From: Hormiphora californensis
Lineage: Eukaryota; Animalia; Ctenophora
NCBI GenBank assembly: GCA_020137815.1
Contig: CM035352.1
Location: 8,680,001-8,744,000 of the forward strand
Direction of reading: 5' to 3'
DNA: 64,000 nt
In this document: in pieces, positions 7,914-63,218 of the stretch
Position numbering within the stretch: the first letter of the stretch is position 1
Layout of the letters: each line of letters begins with the position of its first letter
Position numbers and translations under genes: made by a program
The notes under the pieces: model-generated
The model's input: only the letters and a program-made list of their open reading frames with translations
Told to the model about the DNA's origin: nothing
Database searches by the model: none

Positions 7914-9082
7914 GCTCAGATTCAGAACAACTAGATTTTTCTCGATGTCTTGTGAAATTTGTTCTCTGTTTCGGTGAATTCGAATGTAGGGGGAGTATGT
8001 TGATAGCACGTTGTCTCAGCGAGTATTAGTTACCTTGTCAAAGACACACTCAGTCGAGAAAAATACTAAGAAATACTTAGAAAGCTTATCACCCCGTGCC
8101 TGAACAAAGTTTAACCTCGGATGAAAAATGTACACTAAGCGGACTTCACTAGGGTCTTCAGATAGGTATTTGGAGTGGAAAAATGTAAAAAAACACCCCA
8201 ATTTTATGAAAAGTTTTTTCTCTACGTGGATTTTAAAATGGGTCGTTTTGACTGTCAAAACGGCTTGAAAACCATGCTGTCTGCAGATTTATAGTCCTTT
8301 TCCGGTAAAAAGGTTGCACCTGACCGTTTTTTGCACGTAGAATCGATTGCCGGTGAAGAGAAATCTCTAAAACGACTGGAAAATGGTCAAAATTTGAATT
8401 TTTGACGTTTTTTGAGGGTTTTTTCGCCCCTAACCCCATCAAGACATCAAGATAGAAAATTTTCACTAGTGTCAAACGTTAAAATGGACATTTTTCTACC
8501 GGATCCCAAAGTTTCAGATAAATCCAATAACAGGGTAAAATTTGGCTAGTTATTGAAAGTGGCTAGATGAGAGAAAGTGAACTTGAACTTAATTTTTTCA
8601 CAATTTTGGCCTTTTTGACCAACTTCTGATTGAAATGGCCAATCAGGACCATGCTCACGCTAAAGAAGGGACAATTTCCTACTAAAATACAAATTTTCAT
8701 GCCGATACGACAACAGGTCATGGATCTGTAGCAAATTTAAGCGAGCTAACTAGGCTATTTCTACTGTCAAAAAAGGTCAATTTTTCTTATTTTCGGGTCG
8801 ATTGGTAGTAAAAAAGGGTACCCGACCTATTTTTGCCCGTAGAATTGATTTCCGATGGAGTTGGACCTCTAGATCGTCAGGAAAATTGAAGAAAACGAAT
8901 ATTTCAGTTTTTCGGGTAAACAGCCAGAAAATGGTAATTTAGTATCAATCGGCAATCAAAAGGGTTCCCAGCCCAATTTTTCACGTAAAATTGGTCTAAA
9001 ATGGAATTGGAGCTCTTAATCTACGAGAAAATAGGTCAATTTCATTTTTTGTTTGTTTTTTTACTCATTTTCTGGCTATTTA

Positions 9083-10410
9083 TGTTATCTTGTTCCAGCT
9101 TTTGTGCCGTTTTGTGAGCTCCCTTATCAGTCAAGTTCGCAAGCATCTCTCCAATTGTAACATCCTGTGCTCACCTCGTGCTCACCTGTCATGAGTGGTA
9201 GTACTGCTTCTGGAAACAGCTTTTCTAACCGACTCAGAGTGAACAGTGATGAAAGAGTGACAAAGGTGGTATACCGTGAGGTTCAGAGTGAAGTTGTGGA
9301 CCTAGTGCGAGAACTGTTTGTTCATGTGAAGGAGGCAGATTCATTCCCCAAGAAATGGTCTGCTAGTTCAGCTTCCTGTTTCTGGGACAATCTGAAGTGT
9401 CCTAGTAAGAGTAAGATCAAGGGAGTGGGAAAACCTGAACTTGCTGAGTTTGCTGAGAAGGCCTGTCGCTTGCTGGTTGAGCGTTGTTACCCGGCGATTG
9501 ACAAGCTGTCTATTGAAACTGAGGAGTGTGAGAGGAGAATAATTAACTGTCAAGAGGAGCTTATCACCGCACAGCGATTGTTGGTTGAGGCCCAGGACCG
9601 CTTAGTCAAACTACAGTGTGAGCTGTTGGAGAAGAGAGACGGTGAGATCATTGCCGTGCAGTCTACCGCTGAGAAGGAGATTAAATCTTTTGCTGGTGTT
9701 CTCCAGAAAAACTGTGAGACTGCCCTAGCACCGCAGCGGGTACGTCATGCTATTGCTGTAGCGACAGAGGACAGGGCGAACAATGTTATTGTGCATGGTC
9801 TGTTTGATGACCGGGCTGAGAATGATGAGGATCTGGAGAACGAAATTAAGCGAGTGTTTAACAGTTTGGGTGCGTGTATTACTGGTGTTTCCAGTATGAA
9901 GCGACTTGGGAAATATAAGGATGGCTCTGACCGGCCTGTAAAGCTACGTTTATGTGGCAAAGACTTCCGAGATCAAGTACTGTCCAGTAAGAAATCTCTG
10001 AAGAACTCTGATAGGCACAAAAGTGTCTACATTTCCCCTGACCGTTCTCCAGAGGAGAGGGAGGAGAGGAGGAAGCTGGTGGTAGCGTTGAAGGAGAGGA
10101 AAGATGCGGAGCCGGGGAAGACATTTGGGATTCGAGGTGGCAAGGTGGAGGAAGTGTGAGAAACAGTATGTGACTGCTGTGTTTGAGTTTGTGTGTTGAT
10201 TTAAATTAAGTTAGGTTTTTGTGACTGGACTTTTTGAGCATCAGAGCACCGGACTTTTAATTTGGATAAAGAACATTATTTTTACTTTATATACTCTAGA
10301 TATATTTGCAATGGTGAACCGCTCTGATTGCCGTGTAGTTTTCTAGTTATTTTTTCTAGTTACCTATATGGTATGAGCGTGTATACAAGTACGGATATTA
10401 TTATTATTAT
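9083..10410 (+). mobile_element. ORF1-only non-LTR retroelement (non-autonomous LINE derivative)
   Basis: TSD TATTTA (9077-9082 / 10411-10416), (TTA)n tail at 10396-10410, one intact ORF and no ORF2. Confidence 0.8.
9191..10159 (+). CDS. LINE ORF1p-like protein (coiled coil + RRM + C-terminal domain; CR1/L2/L1-type), 322 aa
   Basis: Heptad coiled coil, then NNVIVHGL...KRLGK...RPVKLRL...VYISPDRSPEEREERRKL motifs typical of LINE ORF1p; intronless. Confidence 0.85.
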   Translation: MSGSTASGNSFSNRLRVNSDERVTKVVYREVQSEVVDLVRELFVHVKEADSFPKKWSASSASCFWDNLKCPSKSKIKGVGKPELAEFAEKACRLLVERCYPAIDKLSIETEECERRIINCQEELITAQRLLVEAQDRLVKLQCELLEKRDGEIIAVQSTAEKEIKSFAGVLQKNCETALAPQRVRHAIAVATEDRANNVIVHGLFDDRAENDEDLENEIKRVFNSLGACITGVSSMKRLGKYKDGSDRPVKLRLCGKDFRDQVLSSKKSLKNSDRHKSVYISPDRSPEEREERRKLVVALKERKDAEPGKTFGIRGGKVEEV

Positions 10411-11553
10411 TATTTACCCGAATAACTGAAATATTCGTTTTCTTCAATTTTCCTGACGATCTAGAGGTCCAACTCCATCGGAAATCAATTCTACGGGCAA
10501 AAATAGGTCGGGTACCCTTTTTTACTACCAATCGACCCGAAAATAAGAAAAATTGACCTTTTTTGACAGTAGAAATAGCCTAGTTAGCTCGCTTAAATTT
10601 GCTACAGATCCATGACCTGTTGTCGTATCGGCATGAAAATTTGTATTTTAGTAGGAAATTGTCCCTTCTTTAGCGTGAGCATGGTCCTGATTGGCCATTT
10701 CAATCAGAAGTTGGTCAAAAAGGCCAAAATTGTGAAAAAATTAAGTTCAAGTTCACTTTCTCTCATCTAGCCACTTTCAATAACTAGCCAAATTTTACCC
10801 TGTTATTGGATTTATCTGAAACTTTGGGATCCGGTAGAAAAATGTCCATTTTAACGTTTGACACTAGTGAAAATTTTCTATCTTGATGTCTTGATGGGGT
10901 TAGGGGCGAAAAACCCTCAAAAAACGTCAAAAATTCAAATTTTGACCATTTTCCAGTCGTTTTAGAGATTTCTCTTCACCGGCAATCGATTCTACGTGCA
11001 AAAAACGGTCAGGTGCAACCTTTTTACCGGAAAAGGACTATAAATCTGCAGACAGCATGGTTTTCAAGCCGTTTTGACAGTCAAAACGACCCATTTTAAA
11101 ATCCATGTAGAGAAAAAACTTTTCATAAAATTGGGGTGTTTTTTTACATTTTTCCACTCCAAATACCTATCTGAAGACCCTAGTGAAGTCCGCTTAGTGT
11201 ACATTTTTCATCCGAGGTTAAACTTTGTTCAGGCACGGGGTGTTATAAACTACTCTCAAGAACTCCATGTTTATTAACTCTATGAACTTGGCTGTATTAA
11301 ATATGCCCGGATGGGTTACTGGGTTAGAATTGATATTCTAGGAAATGAGCCTAATTCTAGATAATTATACGCCTAGATATATCATTACGCTGCCTTTATG
11401 CTCCATTTCCTTCTCTCGAAATTAATGTTATAAGTAAACTCATCCAATTTTCAAATCTCTCGTAACTCACTCACTATACTAGCTCCCCAGTCTCCTTACT
11501 CTTTCTCCTAACTGTCTCTCACTCCTAGCTCTCATTTCCTAGCTTATCCTGCA

Positions 11554-17228: not shown

Positions 17229-20200
17229 TCTTCTCTCTCTCTCTCTTCATAAACCACTCCTTGATTCTGCTGCTGATTCTGTGGTCATTGCCGATAATTC
17301 TTCTCTACTGCTCAAGAAGCTAGTTGCCTTAAATTCGAAAGAAACTAAATACAGTCGGACCCCGATTTACCGGGATGCTCGAGGGTTTTTGCCTGATAAA
17401 TCGGGGTGCCCGGTAAATCGGGGTCCGACTGTACTCCTTTCTTACGGACACCTTGTGAGCAGCCAACACCTAGAATCTGTTCAGATTATACAAGCTGCTA
17501 GTACAATATGTGTGGTCACTCGTATTGATTCTGAGTTGAGTAATGCTGCATTACTGAACTAACTTTGGCAATGAAATTACCCCTCCGCAAAAGCTCACAT
17601 TATATATATACCGCGAGTGCACATATCACTCCCGCTGTGCGCGACCATTTGCACGCTGAAATATGCACTGTGCTTCCGCGGGAGCGTGCAGATATAGAGG
17701 GAGCGGGATATAAGTAAGAAATGTGTTCTCGCTGTGTTTTTACACCTTAATCACACACAAACACACAGAATATGACTGACAAGGTACTACACGACACAAA
17801 GTCTGTCAAATTACACTCACTCTCCCTCTTTCTCTCACTAATTATCCCCTTATCACGTTTTGTTGTTTGCTATTTCCAAGAATTCCAATCTCCCTCTCTC
17901 GCATCTCTCTCTTCATCTCTCTCTTCTTTTCACTGTTTCAAACTATCAGACGTTGTTTCCCTTGTGTGTAAGAGTTGCAGTAGCGTCTGTTAGTATTTTT
18001 GAGTGTGTTTTTGCTTAGTTTGGACCTTGTTTTGTCACATCTCTGTGTGTGTAACCACCCAAAATTAAGATTGTTTTGCTTGTAAAGTGTTTTCTCGCGG
18101 AATATATACTCAATAACGTCCTGCACGGCATGTGCAAGCGCCCCTATATCGCACTCGTTTCACTCGTGCAATATAGGTGTGAAATGCACTCCAGCTCCGC
18201 TGTCGTGCATTTCACCTCCATATACGCTCTGCAGTGCAGAGCGTATATGGCGCGCTTGCACTGCGTGCAGAACGTTATGTACTATATAATAACAGGGGTG
18301 ACTTCGTAACCAAGAACTAACTAGGGTCTGACGGTGTATAAGGTCCAAATGAGCCTGAACTCCCCGTATTTGGAGACAAAATATAAATATCGACTTAGTG
18401 ACACTATATTTTAGTGGTCTTTGTGAGTGATGATGTTATCTGATATCTCTATATCGATCCTGCTGCGTTGTATCTGATATTGTGCTAAGTAGTCTCCATT
18501 TCTTTTTTATATAAATTTCTAAGTTATTTCTCTCAGTCTGCTTGTCCCGTTATCTGCATTCCAAGTCTATAAATAGCAACTTATAAAAAGCATTAAAAAG
18601 CAGTATAAATAATAAATATTATCATCTCGATTATGCCCCCACTAGTTTCTGAAAATATCACCTCTCTCCTTGTCCCCTCTATCTGTCTCCACAGACAGCT
18701 GCTCTGTAGTACACGTGTGGTGATCATGATTACAAAATTTATATTCCATGACAGGAAAACCTCATGAGAAATATGGACCGCATCAGCACCAGCCGTATCT
18801 TTGCTCCTTTATAATTTGTAACGGCCCACTGATTCTCCCTCTATATTGTTGCAGACAGTACCAGTGATTCAGATTAATAATCTCCCTCCAGAGTACTCCT
18901 CCCCCGCAGCTCTCAGCTGTATAAATAATCAGCTATAGTTACCAGTAATCCAACCAGTCAGTGATGATGTTCTTTCTACCCTTCCTCCTCCTTCATCTCT
19001 CTACCTCCATCACCATCAACACGCCTCTAGGAAGAGTGACCAGTTTAGACCTCAAAACAACCAGAGGAGTCATCCACGAATTCTACGAGCTCCCTTACGC
19101 CGCCATACACCGCCGTTGGACACACTCCACCCTGCGAGAGAAGCACTGGAAAGGAGTTAGAGATGCATCCCAATACACTGGTATCAAGTGTATCCAAGGT
19201 TACTACTCTGCAAACTTTGGGAGTGGTACAGAGGACTGTTTGGTCCTCACGGTCCGAACTCCAAACACCACTCCATCCACACCCCTCCCCGTTATGGTGT
19301 GGATCCATGGGGGTTCACTCCGGGTCGGATGGGGAGAGGAACCCGGGTATGCTCCTGACGCAGACCTGACAGGTGAGGTTAATGCTGTAACAGTCACCAT
19401 TAATTACCGACTTGATGTCATGGGATTCCTTCAGACTGCAGACCTAGCAAGACGTGGCCATTTGGGGAATTATGGGATTGGTGATGCTCTAACTGCTCTC
19501 CGATGGATTCAGGCTAATATAGCAAGTTTCGGGGGAGACCCAGGGTCTGTTACCCTCCTGGGGGAGAGCTCAGGTGGGGCGGTTATCTATGGGTTGCTAG
19601 GCTCGGAAAAGGCAGATGGGATGTTCCACAAGGCTATTCTGTTATCTGCACCCCAAACCCTGATCACAACCCCTGCACAGGCCTGTACAACACGAGCGAG
19701 CTTTACCCGAGATGCCGGATGTGATTCCTGTAACAAAACGGAGAGAATCCAATGTCTGAGACAAGCCAACACCACTACCCTCGCTAAGGCATTCTTTTCT
19801 TACCGCGGCTACGGGTTTTACGACTTCCCCTATGGGTACGAGGGTCTCTATGGGGAGAGCATGGACTTTGCGGTTCTTGATGGGACTCTAGTGACAAGCG
19901 ATCCTTTTGGGGTAGGATCTCGAGCAAGAAACGGCAAGGTAGAGCTGTATATCTCAAACACGGCACAGGAGACTGCCTACAACGTGTTTTATGGAACGAA
20001 CGTGGTCACGACATGGCTAGATGCGACCAAACTGCTCATGGAGAAGCGGGATAACCTCATACAGACATACAAAGGGGACCTGTCAAAGTTTCCCAAAACT
20101 GCACTAAACAAAGTTGCTGAGATGTACTATTGGAAAAATACATCGGAAACTTGGTGGCCTCAACTCTCTATCGATACCGTCCTGACAGACATCCGAACCA

Positions 20201-23200
20201 CATGTCTGAACAACAACCTGGTGAAATCCCTGAACCAAAACCACAACATCACAGCTCGGCGGGTCTACATCTCTCAGCGTGTGAATGAGACGTTTAATGT
20301 TGGTGGGGGTGTCTCTGTACCCTGGAGTTCCATGCATGGTTGGGATACCGAGGCTCTCTTTGGATATGGATACTACACACCCCTCTACAACCTCACCACA
20401 ACCAACCAAGACCACAACCAGAGATTCCTCCGTAACCTCAGGGATTTCGTGGGTAGTGTAGTGTGGGACAAGGTATCCAATGAGACATGGCCGAGGGGGG
20501 AGACTCTACACTTTACAAATGAGGACTTCCCTGGGTCTCTTAGGCTGGAGGATGATCCACCACAGGAGGACCAATGTGAAATGTGGGAAGAGTTGGATAT
20601 GCTTAAGTTTGGATGGCAGAACTAACAAGTGTGTACAAGACTGAATATGACCTTATATGGTCATCACGTGGTTTTTGTGTTTTGATGTCTTTCACACGTT
20701 GATTTTGATCGCAAAATATTTCCCTCTATTGAATTTCGTTCTAAACTTCAGTCACTACGAATCATAAGATACATTCATTCTTCAGTCTTCACTCAATCGA
20801 CATAAGACTTTAGGATTAAATTCCCTGGCCTAGTCGACATAAGTAGTCAGTAGTCTACAATTTACCTGCAGCTAACTAAATCCTCCACCTCATTTCAGAT
20901 TTTGGTATCTATCTAATATGGATGGCCCTATTAACCCTCATCTCAGTCTGCTCATTCTTCTCCCACCTGGCGAGTGTGGCCCTGATATCTCGACACGGTG
21001 CCAGAACTGGAAACCCGCCCCTACCTGGCATCCTAACAGTGGATCTAACCCATGCCCTCTCTGCGGTGTTTGGTATTGGGGTGCTGTGGTTGGGTAGTAA
21101 CCAGTGTTTTACACTACTCTGCACTGCCGCTCTTGTCTCCCTTCCTCCGGCTATCCTCTGGGTAAGGAGAGCCTGTGTGTGATTTTGTTTGACAGGTTCA
21201 AGTTTATGGAAGTTGGAATTAGAAACTGATTGATTAGATCTTTGAGCGCGAACCTTGGTCACTTACCTCGCTCCAATTTTCAGATCGGTTGTTCAAACGA
21301 TGAACTGATACCATGTACTGATCCGGACTGTACGTCAATTGAAAAAGCGGTGGCAGCATGTGACACAACTAACGTCAAGGAATATTTCATTGATGAACGG
21401 TAGGTGAATATCTTAGTGCTTATATGTATAGTGAAACGTGAAGTAAAGAGAGAGTAGTTTGATTTGTTTACTCTGAGATATTGGTTTATATCTTGATCGA
21501 CCTAATAAAATGTGAAGGTGGGCTTTTTGATTACTAAACTTGAGTCGCATGACACTGTGTCCGTACTTTTAAAATAAAAAATGAAGTTCGAACAATTTAA
21601 CTCTAACCACAGTTATCTCTGTAACTTTACTTGTTCTATATGTTATATCATGATTCCTTCACATTGACTTCATCATGTACGCGGAGAGATTACATCATGC
21701 CTGGGAACCACAGGATGGCTACGATGATATTGGATACCTCGAGGAGTACCTACGTCAAGCGGAATCGATCTGAGGGTCACGGGTTCGTGTCCCGTATCAG
21801 GCTCCACTTGTTAAGGTGGTTATGTGGTGATGTATGGGTGAGTATAGTTTACTGGTTTTAGGGAATAGGGTACACGAGACAACTACAGGTTACAGCAAGG
21901 TAGAAGTAATCTTGCTATCTCAATCGGGTATCCGTGGGAAAGTCAAGGTGGATAGCTTGGCGGTCCAGGGGAGGTAGGGGTCTTCGTTCCGCTATAGGGA
22001 TGGTGTGGGGTAGTAGCGGATCGGTCCTCTTCCCAGTTCTTCATCTCGGTTATATAGTGCAGTGCCTTGTTTCCTCTGTCATCACGATAGACATAACAAA
22101 GATGGTAGGTAAAACATCTTATCGATTCCGCTTGACGTAGGTACTCCTCGAGGTATCCAATATCATCGTAGCCATCCTGTGGTTCCCAGGCATGATGTAA
22201 TCTCTCCGCGTACATGATGAAGTCAATGTGAAGGAATCATGATATAACATATATCTCTAACTAAAACATGTCACTGCCTCTCAGGTTAACTACTAACTAG
22301 CCCTAACCACAGTTGCTTGTTCAGATTCTCTCTCTCTCTAGCAATCAATTATCATAACCTCATGTGAATGAGACCTTCAATTCACGTACTTTTAAAATAA
22401 AAAATGAAGTTCGAACAATTTAACTCTAACCACAGTTATCTCTGTAACTTTACTTGTTCTATATCTCTAACTAAAACATGTCACTGCCTCTCAGGTTAAC
22501 TACTAACTAGCCCTAACCACAGTTGCTTGTTCAGATTCTCTCTCTCTCTAGCAATCAATTATCATAACCTCATTTTCAGGTTAAAGAACGACCTCTCGAA
22601 AGACTACCCCTACCTGCTAATGGAAAACAGTAACTTTGGAAAGAATCTAATTGATACGGATGCCCAAGTTATTGTCATTGCCAATCTAATTTATGTGGTT
22701 TTAGTTGGTAAGTAATGGAAAATAGTATCGTCTTGAAGACTTCACAAGCTATCAATCAACTTAATCCCTAGATGATCTAATCCCCCTATATTTTGTTCTA
22801 TGATCTAATCCCTTCTCATATCAGTAGTTTACCAGCTATGATCTGACCCCCCTCTCATGATGATCTAACCCCTCCTTCCTCTCCCAGCGGTTTGTCACGG
22901 TCTACACTGTTTCTTTCTGGTGGGACTAGGCCAGAGGTCAGATGAACTAACTATAGAGAGATGTGGGTTGATATACTCTGCTGGTGTTGTGCTGTCTAGT
23001 GCGGTGTGCATCGTGATCCGGCCCATCATCTCAAACGATGCAATATGTTACAAGGTAAGTACTGCTGGAAATTGTGCGCATGACAATGATGCAGACGGCA
23101 GACGGATACAACGGTACCACTGCTTTGTGCTCTTTTTCAATATCGAACCTGTATTACAGGATTCGTCTTCTGATTCAGAAGAGCTCTGTGCCTTATTTGG

Positions 23201-28200: not shown

Positions 28201-31200
28201 ATGATCATTTGTTAGGACAGTTTCGGACTTTCTGATCTCCCCCAACCACCAGTCAACTTGGTTTCTCTGCGAAATAATTAGGGAGATAAAGGAAAGGGTA
28301 ATAAATGGGTGTTATAGATCACGTGGTATATGCCCATATATGGCGTTACTCAGCTTCTACCTTATGCCCATATATGGCGTTACTCAGTTTCTACCTCATG
28401 GCCATATATGGTGTTACTCAGTTACTACCTCATGCCCATATATGGTGTTACTCGGTTTCTACCTCATGTTCAGCGTCCTCGGGAAGGGTGGCCCGTTTGT
28501 GTCTCATCTCGTCATAAAACAGGAAAATGTTTCGTCTGTGACACTGTGCTGTTACCTGCAGTTATAGGACAGATATCACGTGGTGACCAGATTTGGGTAT
28601 GTAGGGTAGCGACTGTTATATAAAGGGTGGGATCGGTGGGTAGCCGTCCGGGTGTGCACTAACACCGGTACAATATGACAATTCGAATTGGGGTTGGACG
28701 GCCGCCGCTGCATCTCATTTCTGCTAACTAGTGTTACAACTGTACGGAACCCTCCAGCTCCGATACCCTGTTTACAAGCCGTACAGCAGGGATCTCGGCC
28801 AGATTCATCTCGATTAGGCACATATTGCTTCACACTATCAGCAGATTGATCGTAGTCTTATACCATGAATCTCTGATAGAAACAAACGTTGTATTCTAAC
28901 AAGAGTCTAATCAACCTTCTCATGTGCTAGTCAGTAGGCTCCAGTAACATGGTATTTAACACAGTTCTCCCCCAGACAGTGCGATTAAACAACTGTTATA
29001 TAAAGGGTGGGTTGGGGGTAACTGATCCTAAACTGGCCAACACATGGTAATGAGAGCGGTGGGTAGCCGTCCGGGTGTGCACTAACACCGGTACAATATG
29101 ACAATTCGAATTGGGGTTGGACGGCCGCCGCTGCATCTCATTTCTGCTAACTAGTGTTACAACTGTACGGAACCCTCCAGCTCCGATACCCTGTTTACAA
29201 GCCGTACAGCAGGGATCTCGGCCAGATTCATCTCGATTAGGCACATATTGCTTCACACTATCAGCAGATTGATCGTAGTCTTATACCATGAATCTCTGAT
29301 AGAAACAAACGTTGTATTCTAACAAGAGTCTAATCAACCTTCTCATGTGCTAGTCAGTAGGCTCCAGTAACATGGTATTTAACACAGTTCTCCCCCAGAC
29401 AGTGCGATTAAACAACTGTTATATAAAGGGTGGGTTGGGGGTAACTGATCCTAAACTGGCCAACACATGGTAATGAGAGCGGTGGGTAGCCGTCCGGGTG
29501 TGCACTAACACCGGTACAATATGACAATTCGAATTGGGGTTGGACGGCCGCCGCTGCATCTCATTTCTGCTAACTAGTGTTACAACTGTACGGAACCCTC
29601 CAGCTCCGATACCCTGTTTACAAGCCGTACAGCAGGGATCTCGGCCAGATTCATCTCGATTAGGCACATATTGCTTCACACTATCAGCAGATTGATCGTA
29701 GTCTTATACCATGAATCTCTGATAGAAACAAACGTTGTATTCTAACAAGAGTCTAATCAACCTTCTCATGTGCTAGTCAGTAGGCTCCAGTAACATGGTA
29801 TTTAACACAGTTCTCCCCCAGACAGTGCGATTAAACAACTGTTATATAAAGGGTGGGTTGGGGGTAACTGATCCTAAACTGGCCAACACATGGTAATGAG
29901 AGCGGTGGGTAGCCGTCCGGGTGTGCACTAACACCGGTACAATATGACAATTCGAATTGGGGTTGGACGGCCGCCGCTGCATCTCATTTCTGCTAACTAG
30001 TGTTACAACTGTACGGAACCCTCCAGCTCCGATACCCTGTTTACAAGCCGTACAGCAGGGATCTCGGCCAGATTCATCTCGATTAGGCACATATTGCTTC
30101 ACACTATCAGCAGATTGATCGTAGTCTTATACCATGAATCTCTGATAGAAACAAACGTTGTATTCTAACAAGAGTCTAATCAACCTTCTCATGTGCTAGT
30201 CAGTAGGCTCCAGTAACATGGTATTTAACACAGTTCTCCCCCAGACAGTGCGATTAAACAACTGTTATATAAAGGGTGGGTTGGGGGTAACTGATCCTAA
30301 ACTGGCCAACACATGGTAATGAGAGCGGTGGGTAGCCGTCCGGGTGTGCACTAACACCGGTACAATATGACAATTCGAATTGGGGTTGGACGGCCGCCGC
30401 TGCATCTCATTTCTGCTAACTAGTGTTACAACTGTACGGAACCCTCCAGCTCCGATACCCTGTTTACAAGCCGTACAGCAGGGATCTCGGCCAGATTCAT
30501 CTCGATTAGGCACATATTGCTTCACACTATCAGCAGATTGATCGTAGTCTTATACCATGAATCTCTGATAGAAACAAACGTTGTATTCTAACAAGAGTCT
30601 AATCAACCTTCTCATGTGCTAGTCAGTAGGCTCCAGTAACATGGTATTTAACACAGTTCTCCCCCAGACAGTGCGATTAAACAACTGTTATATAAAGGGT
30701 GGGTTGGGGGTAACTGATCCTAAACTGGCCAACACATGGTAATGAGAGCGGTGGGTAGCCGTCCGGGTGTGCACTAACACCGGTACAATATGACAATTCG
30801 AATTGGGGTTGGACGGCCGCCGCTGCATCTCATTTCTGCTAACTAGTGTTACAACTGTACGGAACCCTCCAGCTCCGATACCCTGTTTACAAGCCGTACA
30901 GCAGGGATCTCGGCCAGATTCATCTCGATTAGGCACATATTGCTTCACACTATCAGCAGATTGATCGTAGTCTTATACCATGAATCTCTGATAGAAACAA
31001 ACGTTGTATTCTAACAAGAGTCTAATCAACCTTCTCATGTGCTAGTCAGTAGGCTCCAGTAACATGGTATTTAACACAGTTCTCCCCCAGACAGTGCGAT
31101 TAAACAACTGTTATATAAAGGGTGGGTTGGGGGTTAGCAGAAATGAGATGCAGCGGCGGCCGTCCAACCCCAATTCGAATTGTCATATTGTACCGGTGTT

Positions 31201-34200
31201 AGTGCACACCCGGACGGCTACCCACCGCTCTCATTACCATGTGTTGGCCAGTTTAGGATCAGTTACCCCCAACCCACCCTTTATATAACAGTTGTTTAAT
31301 CGCACTGTCTGGGGGAGAACTGTGTTAAATACCATGTTACTGGAGACTACTGACTAGCACATGAGAAGGTTGATTAGACTCTTGTTAGAATACAACGTTT
31401 GTTTCTATCAGAGATTGATGGTACCGTAATCTGGGGTAACTTTGGTTTGCAGGGTAACTTTGGACACTTTCAAAATTTGGCTTTACTCCAAAATTACCAA
31501 CAGATAACGAGAGATTTGGAAAAAAATTTTGGTGTACAAGTAACTGACCCACAAATGTCTAACTAATGGTACAATTATTTTTTCCAAGTCTATGCTAATT
31601 ATCTCCTAATTAGGGTCAAACATAATTGAAGTCAAATTCGCTAAAAATGTTCAAATCAAAATGGGTACCATAGATCTGACCGGGCAAATGACCGAATCAA
31701 GTTTGCTCTATAGAGTGGAAGGGTTTCGATCAAATAATTCGGGGCACCATTTTTCAAACCCGATCAATTACTTTAATTGAGACTAATTGGGGTGGCTAAT
31801 GTTACCCCGCCATATTTTGAATTTTGGGGTAACTTTGGACGGGGTGCCAAAGTTACCCCACACTACAGGTTTTGATCTTTTGATGTCGTCAGAGTTGCCT
31901 TAAACCCTCTCTGACTTGTTTAGAATCATTTGACCAAGATTCAGCCCGATTTATGCCCATTTTCATTTATCTATTCGCTAGGGTAGTGAATAAACCAGAA
32001 AATGTGTTCTACTTTATGGAGCTAAATCACAGAAATCCGACCTGAAACCCATCAAACTTCAATAATTTGGGGTCACTCTTCCATCCTGTAGCTTGGTAGA
32101 TGGTATTGACCCTCTATCATAGAGTCTATGTGAGTGTATTAGTTCTTGTGGACAATCTATGCAGGAACACAGGCAGCAAAACTCCTTTATTTAGCCAGTA
32201 CCCATATTAGTGGACAAATTGCTGGCGGTCAAATTCAGTAAAAAGAACTAATACTGTCGCCTAGGGAGCCAATACCACCTACCAAGCTACTGCAGGGTGG
32301 ATGAGGGACTCCAAATTACTGAAGTTTGATGGGTTTCAGGCCGGTTGTTTGTGATTTAGCTCCATAAAATAGACCAAATCCTTGTTTATTCACTACCCTA
32401 TAGGATAGATGGATGAAAACGGGCGTGGATTGGGCTGAATTTTGGTCATATGGTCCTAAACAAGTCAGAGAGGGTCTAAGGCAACTCTACAAACGCTCAT
32501 ATCGAAAACCTAAACATTTAATGTTCATTTATTTGTCATTGCAAAATGTGTCCAAAGTTACCCCACCCCGATTCCAAAGTTACCCCATGCCCTAAAACTC
32601 CACTTACACTAAAGTACACGTTAATTAATGTAATTAAATGAAAGGGGGCCAAAAATTTCACTAGTTATATCTGGTGTACTGGGTCTGGAACGGGATTATT
32701 TGGTTCAAAAATTTTCGAGTGTGGTTCTGGCAAGGAGTTATTTTAGGAGAATGCTAAAAAGTGGTACAAAGTTACCCCAACTTACGGTATAAGACTACGA
32801 TCAATCTGCTGATAGTGTGAAGCAATATGTGCCTAATCGAGATGAATCTGGCCGAGATCCCTGCTGTACGGCTTGTAAACAGGGTATCGGAGCTGGAGGG
32901 TTCCGTACAGTTGTAACACTAGTTAGCAGAAATGAGATGCAGCGGCGGCCGTCCAACCCCAATTCGAATTGTCATATTGTACCGGTGTTAGTGCACACCC
33001 GGACGGCTACCCACCGCTCTCATTACCATGTGTTGGCCAGTTTAGGATCAGTTACCCCCAACCCACCCTTTATATAACAGTTGTTTAATCGCACTGTCTG
33101 GGGGAGAACTGTGTTAAATACCATGTTACTGGAGCCTACTGACTAGCACATGAGAAGGTTGATTAGACTCTTGTTAGAATACAACGTTTGTTTCTATCAG
33201 AGATTCATGGTATAAGACTACGATCAATCTGCTGATAGTGTGAAGCAATATGTGCCTAATCGAGATGAATCTGGCCGAGATCCCTGCTGTACGGCTTGTA
33301 AACAGGGTATCGGAGCTGGAGGGTTCCGTACAGTTGTAACACTAGTTAGCAGAAATGAGATGCAGCGGCGGCCGTCCAACCCCAATTCGAATTGTCATAT
33401 TGTACCGGTGTTAGTGCACACCCGGACGGCTACCCACCGCTCTCATTACCATGTGTTGGCCAGTTTAGGATCAGTTACCCCCAACCCACCCTTTATATAA
33501 CAGTTGTTTAATCGCACTGTCTGGGGGAGAACTGTGTTAAATACCATGTTACTGGAGCCTACTGACTAGCACATGAGAAGGTTGATTAGACTCTTGTTAG
33601 AATACAACGTTTGTTTCTATCAGAGATTCATGGTATAAGACTACGATCAATCTGCTGATAGTGTGAAGCAATATGTGCCTAATCGAGATGAATCTGGCCG
33701 AGATCCCTGCTGTACGGCTTGTAAACAGGGTATCGGAGCTGGAGGGTTCCGTACAGTTGTAACACTAGTTAGCAGAAATGAGATGCAGCGGCGGCCGTCC
33801 AACCCCAATTCGAATTGTCATATTGTACCGGTGTTAGTGCACACCCGGACGGCTACCCACCGCTCTCATTACCATGTGTTGGCCAGTTTAGGATCAGTTA
33901 CCCCCAACCCACCCTTTATATAACAGTTGTTTAATCGCACTGTCTGGGGGAGAACTGTGTTAAATACCATGTTACTGGAGCCTACTGACTAGCACATGAG
34001 AAGGTTGATTAGACTCTTGTTAGAATACAACGTTTGTTTCTATCAGAGATTCATGGTATAAGACTACGATCAATCTGCTGATAGTGTGAAGCAATATGTG
34101 CCTAATCGAGATGAATCTGGCCGAGATCCCTGCTGTACGGCTTGTAAACAGGGTATCGGAGCTGGAGGGTTCCGTACAGTTGTAACACTAGTTAGCAGAA

Positions 34201-37200
34201 ATGAGATGCAGCGGCGGCCGTCCAACCCCAATTCGAATTGTCATATTGTACCGGTGTTAGTGCACACCCGGACGGCTACCCACCGCTCTCATTACCATGT
34301 GTTGGCCAGTTTAGGATCAGTTACCCCCAACCCACCCTTTATATAACAGTTGTTTAATCGCACTGTCTGGGGGAGAACTGTGTTAAATACCATGTTACTG
34401 GAGCCTACTGACTAGCACATGAGAAGGTTGATTAGACTCTTGTTAGAATACAACGTTTGTTTCTATCAGAGATTCATGGTATAAGACTACGATCAATCTG
34501 CTGATAGTGTGAAGCAATATGTGCCTAATCGAGATGAATCTGGCCGAGATCCCTGCTGTACGGCTTGTAAACAGGGTATCGGAGCTGGAGGGTTCCGTAC
34601 AGTTGTAACACTAGTTAGCAGAAATGAGATGCAGCGGCGGCCGTCCAACCCCAATTCGAATTGTCATATTGTACCGGTGTTAGTGCACACCCGGACGGCT
34701 ACCCACCGCTCTCATTACCATGTGTTGGCCAGTTTAGGATCAGTTACCCCCAACCCACCCTTTATATAACAGTTGTTTAATCGCACTGTCTGGGGGAGAA
34801 CTGTGTTAAATACCATGTTACTGGAGCCTACTGACTAGCACATGAGAAGGTTGATTAGACTCTTGTTAGAATACAACGTTTGTTTCTATCAGAGATTCAT
34901 GGTATAAGACTACGATCAATCTGCTGATAGTGTGAAGCAATATGTGCCTAATCGAGATGAATCTGGCCGAGATCCCTGCTGTACGGCTTGTAAACAGGGT
35001 ATCGGAGCTGGAGGGTTCCGTACAGTTGTAACACTAGTTAGCAGAAATGAGATGCAGCGGCGGCCGTCCAACCCCAATTCGAATTGTCATATTGTACCGG
35101 TGTTAGTGCACACCCGGACGGCTACCCACCGCTCTCATTACCATGTGTTGGCCAGTTTAGGATCAGTTACCCCCAACCCACCCTTTATATAACAGTTGTT
35201 TAATCGCACTGTCTGGGGGAGAACTGTGTTAAATACCATGTTACTGGAGCCTACTGACTAGCACATGAGAAGGTTGATTAGACTCTTGTTAGAATACAAC
35301 GTTTGTTTCTATCAGAGATTCATGGTATAAGACTACGATCAATCTGCTGATAGTGTGAAGCAATATGTGCCTAATCGAGATGAATCTGGCCGAGATCCCT
35401 GCTGTACGGCTTGTAAACAGGGTATCGGAGCTGGAGGGTTCCGTACAGTTGTAACACTAGTTAGCAGAAATGAGATGCAGCGGCGGCCGTCCAACCCCAA
35501 TTCGAATTGTCATATTGTACCGGTGTTAGTGCACACCCGGACGGCTACCCACCGCTCTCATTACCATGTGTTGGCCAGTTTAGGATCAGTTACCCCCAAC
35601 CCACCCTTTATATAACAGTTGTTTAATCGCACTGTCTGGGGGAGAACTGTGTTAAATACCATGTTACTGGAGCCTACTGACTAGCACATGAGAAGGTTGA
35701 TTAGACTCTTGTTAGAATACAACGTTTGTTTCTATCAGAGATTCATGGTATAAGACTACGATCAATCTGCTGATAGTGTGAAGCAATATGTGCCTAATCG
35801 AGATGAATCTGGCCGAGATCCCTGCTGTACGGCTTGTAAACAGGGTATCGGAGCTGGAGGGTTCCGTACAGTTGTAACACTAGTTAGCAGAAATGAGATG
35901 CAGCGGCGGCCGTCCAACCCCAATTCGAATAGGGTAGCGACTGGCTATTTGAAACGCCTGCTAACTTGAAACAGTGTCTGATAACTTGAAACACGTGCTC
36001 TGGTTATTTGAAACAAATGCGCGTTATTTGCTCTCTGATTGGTGTCGTGTGTGTGCTGTAGCACAGTGAAGAGAGTCTGGTAACTTGAAACACTGAGGAG
36101 GGCTATTTGAAACAATTTTCTCCGATTGGATTGTCGAAATTTTTGTTGTTCAATATGAGCATGAGGCAGGATATAAACTATGATTTGAGTCATTTCCGCC
36201 AAAAGTTGGCCGAATATGAGGCAAAAACTGTTTTCCTGCTAATTTGAAACAGTTTTTGGAAAAGGTCATTGCACCAAGCACGTTCAACAAAATTCAGATT
36301 TCAGACATGGAATGGCTCTGCACAACCCTTTTCTAACTATTCAATGTCAAAAATTTTGGTTTCGTGGAGAAATTGAGGGAGATACGGGTGTTTCAAATTA
36401 GCAGACCGAGGCGGGTAAATTGAAACACCAAATTTGGATAGATATCACGTGACCCCGACCCCGGAAGACAAAATGTGACATCTCCAACCACCCAAAAAAC
36501 TACCCAGGGACTGTCTCGGTAACACAAGGTCAAAAAAATTTGGGTTCGACTTGATTTGTGGGCAGGCAAGGGAAAAAAGTGAAAAACTGTTTCAAATAGC
36601 CAGTCGCTACCCTATGTCACGTGGTGACTATATTTGGGTATGTATGTCACGTGGTGACCATATTTGGGTATGTATATCACGTGATCAAATAAACTGCACA
36701 CGTGATATGAAGCCAACTTACAGTTTCAAAGGATTGCTTGATTTCCTCAATGTTGGTAAGGTCCTTCTCAAATGAGACGTAGGATAATGTGAACACTCTG
36801 CTGTAACCTAGAGAGGAATATAATTATAGTTGCCTTACTCGACCCCCTGACATTTTAAAGTGAGAGGTGCACGAAAACGAAAGTTGGAATAATTACTAAA
36901 CAAATTGTGTGTAACATTCATTGGTGTCCAATTAAAAGTTTGGTGAAAAGACGACATCCCAATGTTGTGTTTGAAATTCATTGATAACTAGGAACGTGCA
37001 TGCACGTGCAAGCTTCAAACACAAGTTAGAAGCATGGGACCTTCACTAAAGTGTTCCTTGGATCAAAATAAACAAGTTGGATCCTGTGTCCATTATCGGT
37101 GTACCCCCAGTTGAAGGTCAAGTCTCCACCAACACCAAATATAGGATCATCTCCAAGATGTTCTCTGCCTCATCCGCTACCTCTTCTTGGATGGGTCCCC

Positions 37201-39058: not shown

Positions 39059-42000
39059 TTATATTTCTGTTATCTCAGTGACATGAAATACTAGGGCAGC
39101 TGCTATACCATAAAGTTGGGATAGTGTTTCACTTGAAGTAGTCATTACATTGTAGTGGCTGTACAATGATCTACTGTAGTTGATGAATTTAATGGAAAAC
39201 TGCACGGATACAAACTTAAAAGTCTATGTTATTAAAATCAGAGATACATACAGTCGGACCCCGATTTACCGGGATGCTCAGGGGAAAGGGTTTTGCCCGG
39301 TAAATCGGGGTGTCCGCTAAATCGGGGCAAAATACCGTCAATATCCTATATCGGGGGAAGATTATCCCCCCGGTAAATCGGGGTTCCGGTAAATCGGGGT
39401 CCGGTAAATCGGGGTCTGACTGTATTATAATTCGCTCCTTACCTTGGTTGATCAACATCGTTCTGTGAAAATGGGACTTGCCACCCAAAATTAGCTAAAA
39501 CAGGAATTACCTTGGTTTGTGAAGGTCCTTCAATGAAAGCAGGGACATCACTTGCTATGTCCCCATATATCATTTCACTATAAAATATTACACCGGTGTG
39601 TTGTACATTTCAGGTTAAAAGTATCTGGTTCATCTGAACTCAATTGCAATTGACAATTGATTGTCACTTACAATGCAGTGAGACTGATCAGAGATCTTGA
39701 CGAATTCTTAAATTAAAACAAAAGCATTCATATTATAACAGAATATTACCTCACAAAATAATAACAAAAACTACAAATTACGAAACTCATTATCAATACT
39801 AAACTCATTATCATGTTTAAAAGCTAATTTATTTTACTTATCCCTCAGTTAAATAGACACAACAAAAAGATATATATCGGGGGCTACAAACTGCGAACCA
39901 GGAAAGGGTTACCATGGTAACCAACAGATAGTAGTTCCCCTCACCGCCATCCATGTCCAGATCTATCGCCCGGATCCCATCCATGTGCCGACTCATCTTT
40001 TGGACTGGATGTGGGGAGGAAACATTGTGTTATTTTGACTTGCACACGGCCCCACTTAAGGGTACACCTGGCGTTTTTCATCATCGAGTGCCCAACCAAA
40101 TGACTTCACCAGGGTTTAGGCCATACAAAATGGACCTCAAATATGCAATTTTAGCCCTAAAGTCGAATTCATATTTTTGCTACAGCCTATTTTCAAAGTG
40201 GCGTTTTTTCAATTTTTGTTGAAATTTTTAACCTCAGGACCACTTTTTTTGAGATAGAAACATTAAATTCTTGGAATTTGAAGAGAATATAAAGGTGAAT
40301 AAGCCCAAAGAAGGATTTCTGAAATGGAGCTTATTTCTGGCCATGAGAACGGTTTACTTTTTTGCTTCTTTGACACGCTGGCTGAGAATGTTCCCATGCT
40401 TCATTAGAGATGAAAATCTGGAAATAGTTGCTCAAAACGATTATCTATGTGGCCCAAAAATTTTGGAACTTTCCCGCCAAAGATGTGGTGTGCAGAGCTT
40501 TTTTTGTGAAACCTGTCTTTTTGAAAAAGAGGGAAATTCCCTGTATCTCAAAAACGGATGATCGTAGAGACCTGGGACCAAGCTTAATCGATTCAGAAGG
40601 TCCGATTTTGGGGGGGTCTTCTGAGAGACATTTTGCTCCTACTCCAACCGATTTTGCTGTAACTGCAAAAAACCAATTCTATGAAAAGGGGAAACAACTC
40701 TATTCCAGTAGCATGCTTCGGGCTGATTTCCCCCTTACTTGCTGATACCTTTTTCGCAATTACAGCAAAAACGGTTGGAGTAGGAGCAAAATGTCTCTCA
40801 GAAGACCCCCCCAAAATCGGACCTTCTGAATCGATTAAGCTTGGTCCCAGGTCTCTACGATCATCCGTTTTTGAGATACAGGGAATTTCCCTCTTTTTCA
40901 AAAAGACAGGTTTCACAAAAAAAGCTCTGTACACCACATCTTTGGCGGGAAAGTTCCAAAATTTTTGGGCCACATAGATAATCGTTTTGAGCAACTATTT
41001 CCAGATTTTCATCTCTAATGAAGCATGGGAACATTCTCAGCCAGCGTGTCAAAGAAGCAAAAAAGTAAACCGTTCTCATGGCCAGAAATAAGCTCCATTT
41101 CAAAAATCCTTCTTTGGGCTTATTCACCTTTATATTCTCTTCAAATTCCAAGAATTTAATGTTTCTATCTCAAAAAAAGTGGTCCTGAAGTTAAAAATTT
41201 CAACAAAAATTGAAAAAACGCCACTTTGAAAATAAGCTGTAGCAAAAATATGAATTCGACTTTAGGGCTAAAATTGCATATTTGAGGTCCATTTTGTATG
41301 GCCTAAACCCTGGTGAAGTCATTTGGTTGGGCACTCGATGATGAAAAACGCCAGGTGTACCCTTAAATCTGAGTAGTGGTCAGATTTATCACGCGAGAGA
41401 GAATCTGAACAAGCTGCAATATAGTTTCTGAGAACCTAGTATAGTAGTATACATTTAATGATATACTTTACCTTGGCCATCCATGTCCGGGCACGTTATC
41501 CCCGACCCTGCTGACACGGGGAGCAGCATGGGGAGAGTTGGTGTAGGGAGGTGGTCTATTAGTTGAAGGGATGTCATCAGGGACCACCGCGTTAGATCGG
41601 ACAAAGTAACACGTCTTCCGGCACTTTCTACACACTTGGGCAGGTTCCTGATGAATTAGGATTCTTTTTCACAAATTGAACTTCAAAAAGAGAGAGCATG
41701 AATAAGTCTGATTTGTTTGTTTCTAAGGACGTAAGTGTGAGAGTCTGAAAAATGTGTTACCTTGACGGATAAGAAGAAGCCAGTTTTAACTCGACATGTG
41801 GTTGCTATGGTTACTATGGTTACCAGGGTATTGGTTACCATGGTTACTATGATTTCAATATGTTACCTTGACTGATGAGAAGAAGCCAGTTTTAACTCGA
41901 CATGTGGTGACCTGGTGGGGTCCTATATCAAAACACTCTGGACAACTAGCAGAACCCATCACGGGGAATGCCCTGTTCTTGGGGATCTCCACCTGTAGTG

Positions 42001-58069: not shown

Positions 58070-59870
58070 TGTCTGCACAAAAAAAGGGGTTTTTCTAAAA
58101 AATTTTTTTTTTTGGGCTTTCGTGAAAAAGGGGGTTTTGGGGGAAAAAAAAAAAAAAATTTTTTTTTTTTTTTAAAAAAAAAAAACCCCCAGGGGGGGGG
58201 GGGCCCCAAAAAAAAAAAAAACCCCCCCCCCCCCTTTTTTTTTTTCCCGGGGGGCCTTTAAAAACCCCCGTTTTTTTTTTTCCCCCCCCCCCCCTTTTTT
58301 TTAAAAAAATTTAAAAAAAAACCCCTTTTTTTTTTTTTTTTTCCCCCCAAAAAAAAATTTTTAAAAAACCCCCTTTTTTTTTGGGGGGCCCCCCCCCAAA
58401 AAAAACCCCCTCCCCCCCCCCCCAACCCCCCTTTTCCTCTTCTACAGTCTTCTTTTTTTTCCCCTTTCCCCCCCCCCTTTTCTTTACCTCTTCTTTCCCC
58501 CCCCCCTTTTTTTAAAAAAACCTTCCGCCCCCTTTAAACAGCATTATTACAAGAAGGGGTTTTCGGTTGTTAGGGGAAAATTCCGGTAACCGGGCCCCGT
58601 TTGGCGGGAAAAAGGAATTTTAATAGGGCCCGGTTTTTGGGAAGGGAAGGGGGGGGAGAAAAAAAGGGGAAAGGAAAAAAAAAGGGGGTTTTTTAAAAAA
58701 AAAAAAAAAAAAAACCCCGGTGGGGCGGGAATTTTGGGATTTTTTACCCAATTAACCCCAAAAAAATTTTAAAATTTTAAAAGGTGGGGGAAAGGGGGGG
58801 GGAAAAAGGGGGGAAAAAAAGGGAGGGGGAAAAGGGGGAAAAAAAGGGGGGCAAAAAAAAGGGGCCCGGGGAGGCGGAACCAAAAAAAGCCCCCCGGGGG
58901 GGGGGGAAAAAAAACCCAAAAACCCCGTTTTCCTTTCCCCCCTGCATCTTACCCCCTCAGGGATTTATGAGTTGTTTTATTTTTTTCCCTTTTTCTTTTT
59001 TTTGCCCTTTTCCCCCCCCCCTTTTTCCCCTTTTTTTTCCCCCCCCCCCTTTTCCCCAAAATAAATTTTTTTAAAGTAAGAAAAGGACAGGAGAAGGGGG
59101 GCCAAAAATTTTTTTTAATTTTGGGAACCCCCTTTTTTTTCAAATCCGTCAAAGCGATTTTTTTCCCTTTTTTTAAAAAAAAAAAAATTTTTTTTTTTGG
59201 GGGAAAAAAAAGCTTGTTGAGGGTAAAAACCCCAAAATTAACTTTGAGGGTTTTAAAAATTTTTTTAGTTTGGTCTTTTTTCCCCTAATCCCCCATCTTT
59301 CTTTCTTTCTTCGCCCCCCCCTTTTTTTTCCCCTTTTTTGTTTTTTTTTTTTTCCCCCCCCCCCAAAAAAGGGTTTTTTTCCCCGGGGTTTTTATTTTCC
59401 CCCCTTCCCTTTTTTCTTTTCCTCTCTTTTTTTCTTTTTCTTCTCTGTTCCCTGTCTCCCTTTCTTCTTTTTTCTTTTTTCTTTTTTTTTTACTTTTAAA
59501 AACCCCTTAATCACTTTTTTTTTCCTTTTGTATTTATTCCAAGGTTGTCCTACATTTCCCCCCGAATTTTCATTTAATTATTTTTTTAAAGGGGGGGGGC
59601 CCTAGTCTTTTAACGGTTTCTTTTATCCTCTCCTTTTTTTTTCCAAAAAATCCTTTTTTTGCCTTATACTTTTTTTTTGCACTATGGCACCAGCGCTCGG
59701 TTTGTCCGCTGACCAAAACCGTTTCCCCCCCCTTTCGGTTTTTTTTGTTGGGAATTTCAAAGTATTTCTGAATAATTTTCCCCCTTTCCCCTTCAAGGTT
59801 TCCCCCTTTTTTCCCTTTCATCTTCCAAGGCCCTTTCTCTCTCACCCCGCGTTTAGGTAGTTTTTCCTGA
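58070..59870. other. Homopolymer-inflated low-quality assembly segment
   Basis: Runs of all four bases back to back, typical of unpolished noisy long reads. Confidence 0.85.
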
Positions 59871-60969: not shown

Positions 60970-61568
60970 GAGAGAGAGAGAGAGAGAGCGTTATGCATCA
61001 TGTAGCACGCCATATGCCTCACTAACTGCACCTTTATTAGTTCCCTCGCCCTGATGCTGCATCTGTAATATGTGTGGGTGTTTGTGCGAGAGTGGTGCTA
61101 GATACCTCCTAGTAGCAGTGGTAGTGGTAGACTATTCCACTTGTCTGCTGCTAGTGCGGCATCCCAGCAGCTTTGAATTATAACAGACGTCCTGGTTTTC
61201 AGGACTTTTCTACGTCCAATCCAATCTATTAGAGGTCATCATGGTCCTTACTTCATAACCAATATTCAATAAATGAATCTATTAGAGGAGTTAATATATT
61301 AGGAGAGTTGAGATGTCCAGAGAAAGGGAGGAATACGAGCTGCATGGAGTAAAAGGAAGAGACATGTAAAGCAGTAAAGAAAAGTTGTTGCTGGTGGATC
61401 TCAGCTATATTTTAGTGCTTCCCGCTACTCACACTGTACTCCCCTCTGTCATATGTAGTAGTAGTAGTAGTACAGTCTGCTGTCAGTATCTTGTCCGCCA
61501 CCTCCCTCTTCTTGTCAAATCTCTCTTTCTCTATCTCTCTCTCTCTCTCGCTCTCTCTCGCTCTCTCT

Positions 61569-63118: not shown

Positions 63119-63218
63119 NNNNNNNNNNNNNNNNNNNNNNNNNNNNNNNNNNNNNNNNNNNNNNNNNNNNNNNNNNNNNNNNNNNNNNNNNNNNNNNNNN
63201 NNNNNNNNNNNNNNNNNN
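63119..63218. other. Assembly gap
   Basis: Run of N. Confidence 1.

Follow-up and report, generated by a model that had tools for sequence, protein, structure and literature searches.

The window, a stretch of 64,000 nucleotides from Hormiphora californensis, contains a tandem block of a 423-bp repeat amounting to 14.18 units. The units form two inverted arms and a single 14-bp target site duplication (TSD) surrounds the whole block. Positions within the unit are given as u1-u423, corresponding to window 29057-29479 on the plus strand. The features are listed in Table 1. The left arm holds 6 units and 28 nt, counted before a net 43-nt deletion, and its units are 100% identical. The right arm is the reverse complement and runs from 35930 (u48) inward to 31133 (u95), covering 8 units and 48 nt. 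Only two substitutions were found in the whole block and both lie in the right arm, within the 291 bp nearest the inversion. A nested DNA transposon with ends CCGTAA...TTACGG separates this piece from the outer part. The transposon, which we take to be Tc1/mariner-like, is a later insertion than the block. An earlier note on this DNA had described about 14 nearly identical units in two inverted arms, which was correct, and had overlooked the transposon.

Table 1. Window coordinates of the 423-bp block, the elements around it and its junctions.
Feature	Position	Strand	Description
Left TSD copy	28602-28615	+	TAGGGTAGCGACTG; its final ACTG (4 nt) is unit sequence as well
Left arm	28612-31134	- (putative RNA sense)	u359-378, AT, then u1 on to u386
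AT filler	28632-28633		stands in for u379-423 (45 nt); 20 nt inside the left junction
Reference unit	29057-29479		non-coding; TATATAAA at u364 on +
Inversion junction	31133-31134		2-nt overlap (GT), u386 / u95
Right arm, innermost 291 bp	31133-31423	+	two substitutions, 31346 and 31417
Nested non-autonomous DNA transposon	31424-32787		1,364 bp; imperfect CCGTAA TIRs; TA duplication 31422-23 / 32788-89
Right arm, outer part	32788-35930	+	u229 down to u48; 7.4 identical units
Right TSD copy	35930-35943	+	TAGGGTAGCGACTG; first T in common with the unit
Host MITE	35932-36612		24-bp identical TIRs; TA-flanked; older than the block

The TSD consists of TA and the first 12 bp of the left terminal inverted repeat (TIR) of the host MITE; the earlier note had traced it to the left end of this MITE. 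Elsewhere in the window this sequence occurs only in inverted form, at the far end of the MITE. The MITE itself sits inside a 30-bp minisatellite. No alignment above shuffles was obtained between the unit and the other inverted-repeat elements of the window. The window also encodes a carboxylesterase, for which 5/5 named homologues were from ctenophores.

Microhomology was present at all three junctions. The 4 nt (ACTG) on the left and 1 nt (T) on the right had been reported before, and 2 nt (GT) at the inversion were added here. No poly(A) or other A tract was found in the block. Near the left junction 45 nt of the unit are exchanged for AT, a net deletion of 43 nt, which bears out the deletion of about 42 bp noted there previously. 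The arms start at u359 and u48, in agreement with the earlier reading of ends at different internal positions, and stop at u386 and u95. Neither start coincides with the stop of the other arm, the gaps being 85 and 264 nt modulo 423. The two outer ends of the block are approximately 110 nt apart on the unit. Both arms come close to being integer multiples of the unit (P 0.013 one-sided, 0.05 two-sided, post hoc).

The unit is non-coding with 3-10 stops in each of the six frames. Rolling translation was considered as 423 is divisible by 3, and was rejected on these stops. TTTT is absent from both strands. The hammerhead core CUGANGA was absent from both strands, as previously stated, and the best relaxed candidates had 3 core mismatches. 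Rfam gave no match at E<=10 for 2.5 units and none at the gathering score for the whole window. Motif scans found no HDV topology and no HDV/twister loop motif in the unit; the HDV descriptor was loose, matching 13 and 21 of 30 shuffles, and the unit was still negative. A tRNA-like fold at u1-78 forms a three-way junction (local z about -2.4 to -3.3). It was rejected as a tRNA as the anticodon arm is absent and ARAGORN made no call. A tRNA-derived SINE or RNA-gene array was not indicated in the unit by ARAGORN (0), Rfam (0, with tRNA, 5S and snRNA homology in view) or A and B box motifs (chance level). An exon-intron repeat, or splicing as the source of the 43-nt deletion, was also rejected; although GT..AG can be matched to u378-423, 3 extra bases then lack an explanation. 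A possible pseudoknot at u108-160 was set aside as chance alone would give about one 8-bp complement of this kind.

Contigs from 4 of 22 listed public sequencing runs (X1, X5, X6 and X15) were compared with the left flank and first unit. The 423-bp unit forms a multicopy family; several variants of it occur, and other samples show further insertion junctions. The family is probably dispersed; the earlier note had asked for a search for other loci. Small unit shares in the remaining runs, among them RNA runs and a second species (0.12), are no evidence. In run X1 near-identical unit contigs had a depth of 337-463 compared to 28-30 for flank contigs, while variants at approximately 92-97% identity had a depth of 589-907. 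Contigs of X1 overlapped round the whole unit, that is, the family is continuous across the unit ends. Other junctions appeared as loose ends at u361, u71, u100 and u165 (X1) and u53 (X6), among the 14 listed of 113. The flanks of the u361 and u53 junctions were not found in the window. Among the junctions listed, 2/4 of the outer type lay within 5 nt of the ends of the block (P about 0.02); with a 3-nt tolerance P was 0.17 for these 4 junctions from the 14 listed of 113 loose ends. Position u206 is C in all 14 units of the block, in both arms, and T in every compared contig of the four runs. The metatranscriptome run X15 contained a relative approximately 88-93% identical at a depth of 5-7. 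The break between two X15 contigs, near u48-56, coincides with the right end of the block (one study, depth 5-7). Two unit patterns returned no other loci in JGI metagenome contigs, and viral contigs gave a single 18-mer match to the unit which does not extend.

It is very unlikely that the block is in part an assembly artefact, with its copy number or identity created by consensus polishing or its inversion by a chimera. The left junction is without contig cover (28616-28623 bare in X1 and X5) and an error-rich homopolymer stretch lies at approximately 58300-59600 of the window. However, X1 and X5 look like other individuals, with the X1 flank contig departing from the window at 28590. A chimera would not give an exact TSD restoring the TIR of the MITE, a nested transposon flanked by a TA duplication of its own or a base private to all units. 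A satellite embedded in a Helitron, also named for checking, was looked for at the block. Helitrons have TC...hairpin-CTRR ends and no TSD. The block has its 14-bp TSD and outer ends which are not CTRR or TC.

The block is probably the work of an autonomous Penelope-like element (PLE), most plausibly of the Naiad type, whose reverse transcriptase-endonuclease acted on a multicopy ctenophore family. The TSD, inverted arms, internal ends, missing poly(A) and microhomologies of 1-4 nt all support such an insertion. A purified PLE protein nicks both target strands, starts in an AC-rich stem-loop inside the RNA and extends both strands, mainly using unprocessed multi-copy RNA without hammerhead cleavage (PMC11167929). 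The outward-pointing strand of the unit has only two CCAACCC motifs, each adjoining one end of the block. In 25-nt windows the A+C content of the left end ranks in the top 0.5-4% and that of the right end in the top 12% (post hoc). The AC-rich ends and these motifs fit the published mode of initiation (PMC11167929). Naiad and Chlamys insertions have tandem and inverted arms with no canonical hammerhead, and earlier work has described non-autonomous PLE derivatives that lack a hammerhead and insert as multiple head-to-tail copies (PMC8557442). Two ctenophore species appear in the list of Naiad hosts.

In the mechanism proposed the enzyme would make nicks in the two strands at the MITE end, 14 bp from each other. 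The free 3' ends would then prime cDNA from within the unit RNA, at AC-rich sites near u360 and u50. The two cDNAs would run through 6 and 8 unit lengths and be joined through the 2 nt of microhomology, with the DNA transposon entering the right arm afterwards. The unit RNA would be the outward-pointing strand, an assignment based on PLE geometry and the AC-rich starts. The earlier note had remarked that the shared strand of the arms points outward; the observation is true but holds for one strand in any inversion, and is no evidence by itself.

The earlier note had also proposed L1-style twin priming. L1 twin-primed insertions resemble the block in a TSD of approximately 14 bp, an inverted arm and microhomology at the inversion. 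They carry a poly(A) tail at one end and the second primer begins where the first cDNA ended, whereas in the block there is no A tract, both arms are multimeric and starts and stops do not coincide. A single TSD-flanked insertion of reverse transcriptase type from a dispersed family was upheld and the L1-style geometry was not. Arms that are tandem and inverted, starts inside the unit and the lack of both poly(A) and a hammerhead make up the published PLE signature, and neither L1-style twin priming nor a circle is necessary to account for them.

A number of observations count against the PLE reading. Ten unit motifs of 10-12 nt gave 1 match, once, to published Naiad, Chlamys and Hydra consensi, in a ctenophore Naiad 3' UTR, which is near chance. 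One ctenophore Naiad 3' UTR resembled the unit only in an 11-mer and an 8-mer with conflicting polarities. The distance of approximately 110 nt between the ends on the unit does not agree with the 30-40 nt of a PLE tail, and the target is neither a (TA)n tract nor an ATT site. A TATA box lies on the strand opposite to the putative RNA, and the unit share was 0.00 in the single RNA-labelled run of the host species (organism A). The TSD starts exactly at the TA of the MITE, which a transposase-made break would explain as well. This last point also favours repair at the DNA level, in which both ends of a double-strand break at the MITE end, made for example by its transposase, copy a 423-bp extrachromosomal DNA circle or array by microhomology-primed synthesis. 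The short microhomologies and the local deletion with filler are typical of break repair, and identical units would be explained without a ribozyme. This route is nevertheless quite improbable, as other loci repeatedly have their junctions near the same positions of the unit, pointing to a template-specific start, and with a double-stranded template nothing would make both ends copy one and the same strand from AC-rich starts.

The unit copies could alternatively derive from a short insertion whose arms, at first one to two units each, grew into a local satellite and became homogeneous through unequal crossing-over and inter-arm conversion. Such a route is proposed for retrozyme arrays in 10.64898/2026.07.22.740005. 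In its favour, the isolated 291-bp piece contains both substitutions (P 0.002 if uniform), the block has existed long enough to take in a transposon and the near-integer arms fit growth from unit-plus-overlap monomers. We give this history little likelihood as two separate expansions and inter-arm conversion are needed to leave zero differences in approximately 5.6 kb.

In the PLE reading the template was likely a multi-unit RNA. An unprocessed transcript reading through an existing array is slightly favoured over a circle, though only tentatively, since the unit has no ribozyme with which to produce monomers; such a transcript accounts for the anatomy about as well as a circle does. The other form of PLE insertion, somewhat unlikely here, starts from a covalently closed RNA of 423 nt, produced by host enzymes or an unrecognised ribozyme and read round repeatedly from both nicks. 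The private C at u206 is expected if one molecule templated everything, but could be fixed in the source array of the lineage. The phase at which the arms begin differs, and their lengths are close to integer multiples of the unit. Circular folding gave z = -3.1 for the plus strand and -2.0 for the minus strand. At 423 nt the unit is similar in size to the animal retrozyme circles of PMC7229834. Against the circle stand the negative hammerhead, Rfam and HDV/twister searches, and the X15 contigs, which fail to join at their break and close no ring, although contigs cannot decide circularity. The fuller proposal, a ctenophore 423-nt mobile circular RNA cut and closed without a known ribozyme, one circle of which a Naiad-type enzyme copies from both staggered-cut ends to give the two-armed concatemer in one step, is distinctly unlikely. 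The earlier note had suggested a different processing mechanism on account of the missing hammerhead; the lack of this motif does not require one, and processing may be absent altogether.

MRC1/Chlamys-N of Chlamydomonas and Naiad insertions are similarly non-coding, with multicopy head-to-tail units, an inverted truncated arm and no canonical hammerhead (PMC8557442). The block has the same tandem and inverted truncated arrangement without poly(A). It differs in that both arms are long multimers and in having no 30-40 bp tail, which is optional in PLEs, and no microsatellite target. The non-autonomous cases on record come from algae and have 3' sequence in common with their autonomous family (PMC8557442), whereas the PLE link of the block is putative. 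Animal non-LTR retrozymes are likewise short non-coding tandem units with TSDs of >4 bp, dispersed multimers and a proposed PLE dependence (PMC7229834; 10.64898/2026.07.22.740005). A type I hammerhead in each unit defines them and circles are demonstrated for some, whereas the 423-bp unit has no hammerhead and its circle is putative. The retrozyme sample of 10.64898/2026.07.22.740005 included no ctenophore. Titles and abstract beginnings of literature on ctenophores with hammerheads or Penelope mentioned no such element.

The block bears on how PLEs make tandem and inverted insertions and on the part that hammerheads and RNA circles may play in this. With no hammerhead, two recurring start sites and long homogeneous arms, the minimal unit offers a clean test object. 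If the unit forms no circles, linear transcripts can yield retrozyme-like arrays and array structure alone proves no circle. If it does form circles, circularisation can do without known ribozymes. A mobile circle lacking a known ribozyme would, if true, amount to a retrozyme with a new ribozyme or none, in a lineage for which the titles and abstract beginnings of the literature mention none.

The block is a two-armed inverted array of 423-bp units totalling 14.18 units. Unit positions are numbered u1 to u423 (window 29057-29479, + strand). The left arm contained 6 units plus 28 nt, counted before a net 43-nt deletion, and the right arm 8 units plus 48 nt. This bears out the two-armed block of about 14 units described in the earlier note, whose deletion of ~42 bp in the first unit was present with its size corrected to 43 nt. 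The flanking direct repeat was attributed there to the left end of a MITE, and this was confirmed at 14 bp. The repeat is target-derived because the other terminal inverted repeat (TIR) of the MITE is intact. Microhomologies of 4, 1 and 2 nt were present at the block junctions. The right arm was as described except for an overlooked nested transposon. The units were indeed near-identical, with only two substitutions in approximately 5.9 kb, but their clustering had been missed: both lie in the 291 bp between the nested transposon and the inversion (P 0.002 if uniform). Possible causes are a change to a variant template, subsequent homogenisation of the arms and assembly polishing.

Coordinates of the block, its insertion ends and other features of the window
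Feature	Position	Details
Left arm	28612-31134	u359-378, AT, u1 ... u386
Right arm	35930 (u48) inward to 31133 (u95)	opposite strand to left arm
14-bp duplication	28602-28615 and 35930-35943	TA + 12 bp of left TIR of MITE
MITE	35932-36612	681 bp; other TIR intact
DNA transposon	31424-32787	1,364 bp, TA-flanked; nested in right arm
'Before' junctions	u53 (X6); u71, u100, u361 (X1)	among 14 of 113 loose-end rows listed
'Behind' junction	u165 (X1)	among 14 of 113 loose-end rows listed
TA-flanked element	8087-11245	3.16 kb
Intact frame	9161-10159	332 aa; inside 3.16-kb element
Carboxylesterase	18949-20625	PF00135; 558-aa frame, intronless
Tandem duplication	21562-22573	~190 bp, 100% identical, 21-bp filler
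Foldback element	40056-41366	TTAA-flanked; 617-bp arms at 99%, 77-bp spacer
Low-complexity stretch	58300-59600	homopolymer-rich
Frame	61416-62477	no Pfam match
Gap	63119-63218	100 N

Several other elements were found in the window. The 3.16-kb element, with terminal inverted repeats of 834 bp (99.5% identical), appears to be a young foldback transposon that has captured an ORF. Its 332-aa frame had no Pfam match and presumably resembles LINE ORF1. The frame at the right of the window presumably resembles the reverse transcriptase of a CR1/L2-type LINE, specifically its C-terminal portion. A TA-flanked element of 617 bp interrupts one copy of the tandem duplication; its inverted ends match perfectly over 133 bp, and its interior contains a motif resembling a tRNA T-arm. 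TGTTATAT occurs both in the ends of this element and at the left end of the 423-bp block, with no wider similarity. The carboxylesterase has ctenophore homologues at 42-58%; five of its 25 homologues carried an organism name and all five were ctenophore.

No hammerhead core was found in the unit, as previously reported, and neither an Rfam match (E<=10) nor an HDV-like topology was detected. Folding was modest, with z scores for the two strands of -2.0 and -1.3 (linear) and -3.1 and -2.0 (circular). Stops in all frames left no open frame through the unit. In the available text of PMC7229834, animal retrozymes are defined by type I hammerheads and their circles are demonstrated. The block works like a retrozyme, but its unit has no such hammerhead. 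In the earlier note the absence of a hammerhead core had suggested that processing may differ from that of known retrozymes. The inverted arms, internal ends, lack of poly(A) and lack of a hammerhead need no new mechanism, given published work on Penelope-like elements (PLEs). As far as the sources consulted go, PLE insertions are partly tandem, with an inverted copy truncated at its 5' end (PMC8557442), and a purified PLE cleaves and extends both strands of the target; synthesis begins within the RNA, in an AC-rich stem-loop, without primer homology (PMC11167929). A PLE-type insertion probably made the block. A PLE-type enzyme would have inserted it by reverse transcription; we infer this origin, the enzyme, the RNA strand and the nature of the template. 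The anatomy, the membership of a family, the junctions at other sites and the absence of known ribozymes are directly observed.

The template may have been a linear multimer RNA, a tentative reading consistent with the absence of any element to cut monomers and with the PLE preference for unprocessed multi-copy RNA, hammerhead activity being dispensable (PMC11167929, in part). An RNA circle is a slightly less likely template. It is favored by permuted arm starts, a near-integer number of units per arm and one private base in both arms: u206 (window 28839) is C in all 14 window copies versus T in every compared contig of four runs. Identical units would also be explained by a DNA circle, although break repair copying from DNA is unlikely, and by later expansion of a smaller insertion, which is less likely still. 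An assembly artefact is improbable. The low-complexity stretch resembles unpolished long-read sequence and bears on assembly quality.

Assembled contigs of four sequencing runs (X1, X5, X6 and the RNA run X15) were compared over the left flank and first unit. Five loose ends inside the unit with at least 19 unlike letters were found among the 14 of 113 rows listed; one X15 row of 10 letters was left out, as were six from X5 (8-22 letters) that read as variants of the unit. The flanks of the u53 and u361 junctions are absent from the window and these are therefore other loci. Two of the four 'before' junctions lie at most 5 nt from the block's ends (P 0.02; 0.17 at 3-nt tolerance; among 14 of 113 rows listed). 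On the outward-pointing strand, the putative RNA sense, the unit's only two CCAACCC motifs each directly precede one block end, and the left end lies at the unit's most A+C-rich window. The opposite strand carries the only TATA box, which counts against that polarity. TTTT is absent from both unit strands (likewise in 3.6% of shuffles), a weak pointer to permitted Pol III read-through.

In X1 and X5 the block junctions had no independent read support and 28616-28623 was uncovered; the X1 flank contig diverges from the window at 28590 and that of X5 ends at 28615. Such a pattern is consistent with the insertion being polymorphic and these samples lacking it, though holes prove nothing. Part of the unit was present in 20 of 22 listed runs and half or more in four, all from a single common sample. 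The six RNA runs with unit sequence were marine metatranscriptomes (shares 0.05-0.10). A seawater metatranscriptome contained a relative at ~88-93% identity, in two contigs failing to join near u48-56; low depth and carried-over DNA are possible causes of both observations.

The block works like an MRC1-type PLE parasite (MRC1 being among the hammerhead-less PLEs and non-autonomous derivatives). Active autonomous/non-autonomous PLE pairs are confirmed in the portion of PMC9977147 available, and animal retrozymes are derived from PLE pLTRs according to part of bioRxiv 10.64898/2026.07.22.740005. Homology to an autonomous PLE was limited to one 11-mer in the 3' UTR of a ctenophore Naiad, near chance, which is too little to prove the block a PLE derivative. 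X1 depth, a rough guide as all run data are contigs, was 28-30 in the flank, 337-463 for the near-identical unit and 589-907 for variant units, and several variant types occurred in X5 too. Summed depth at u99-152 (window 28732-28785) was several-fold above most of the unit in both runs, and the match between the unit and a 706-nt X5 contig is confined to u89-189 (~89% identity). X1 contigs overlap round the entire unit, crossing u48 and u360, so most family copies are probably in multimers. The u99-152 region is possibly a conserved core common to other families or to the autonomous partner.
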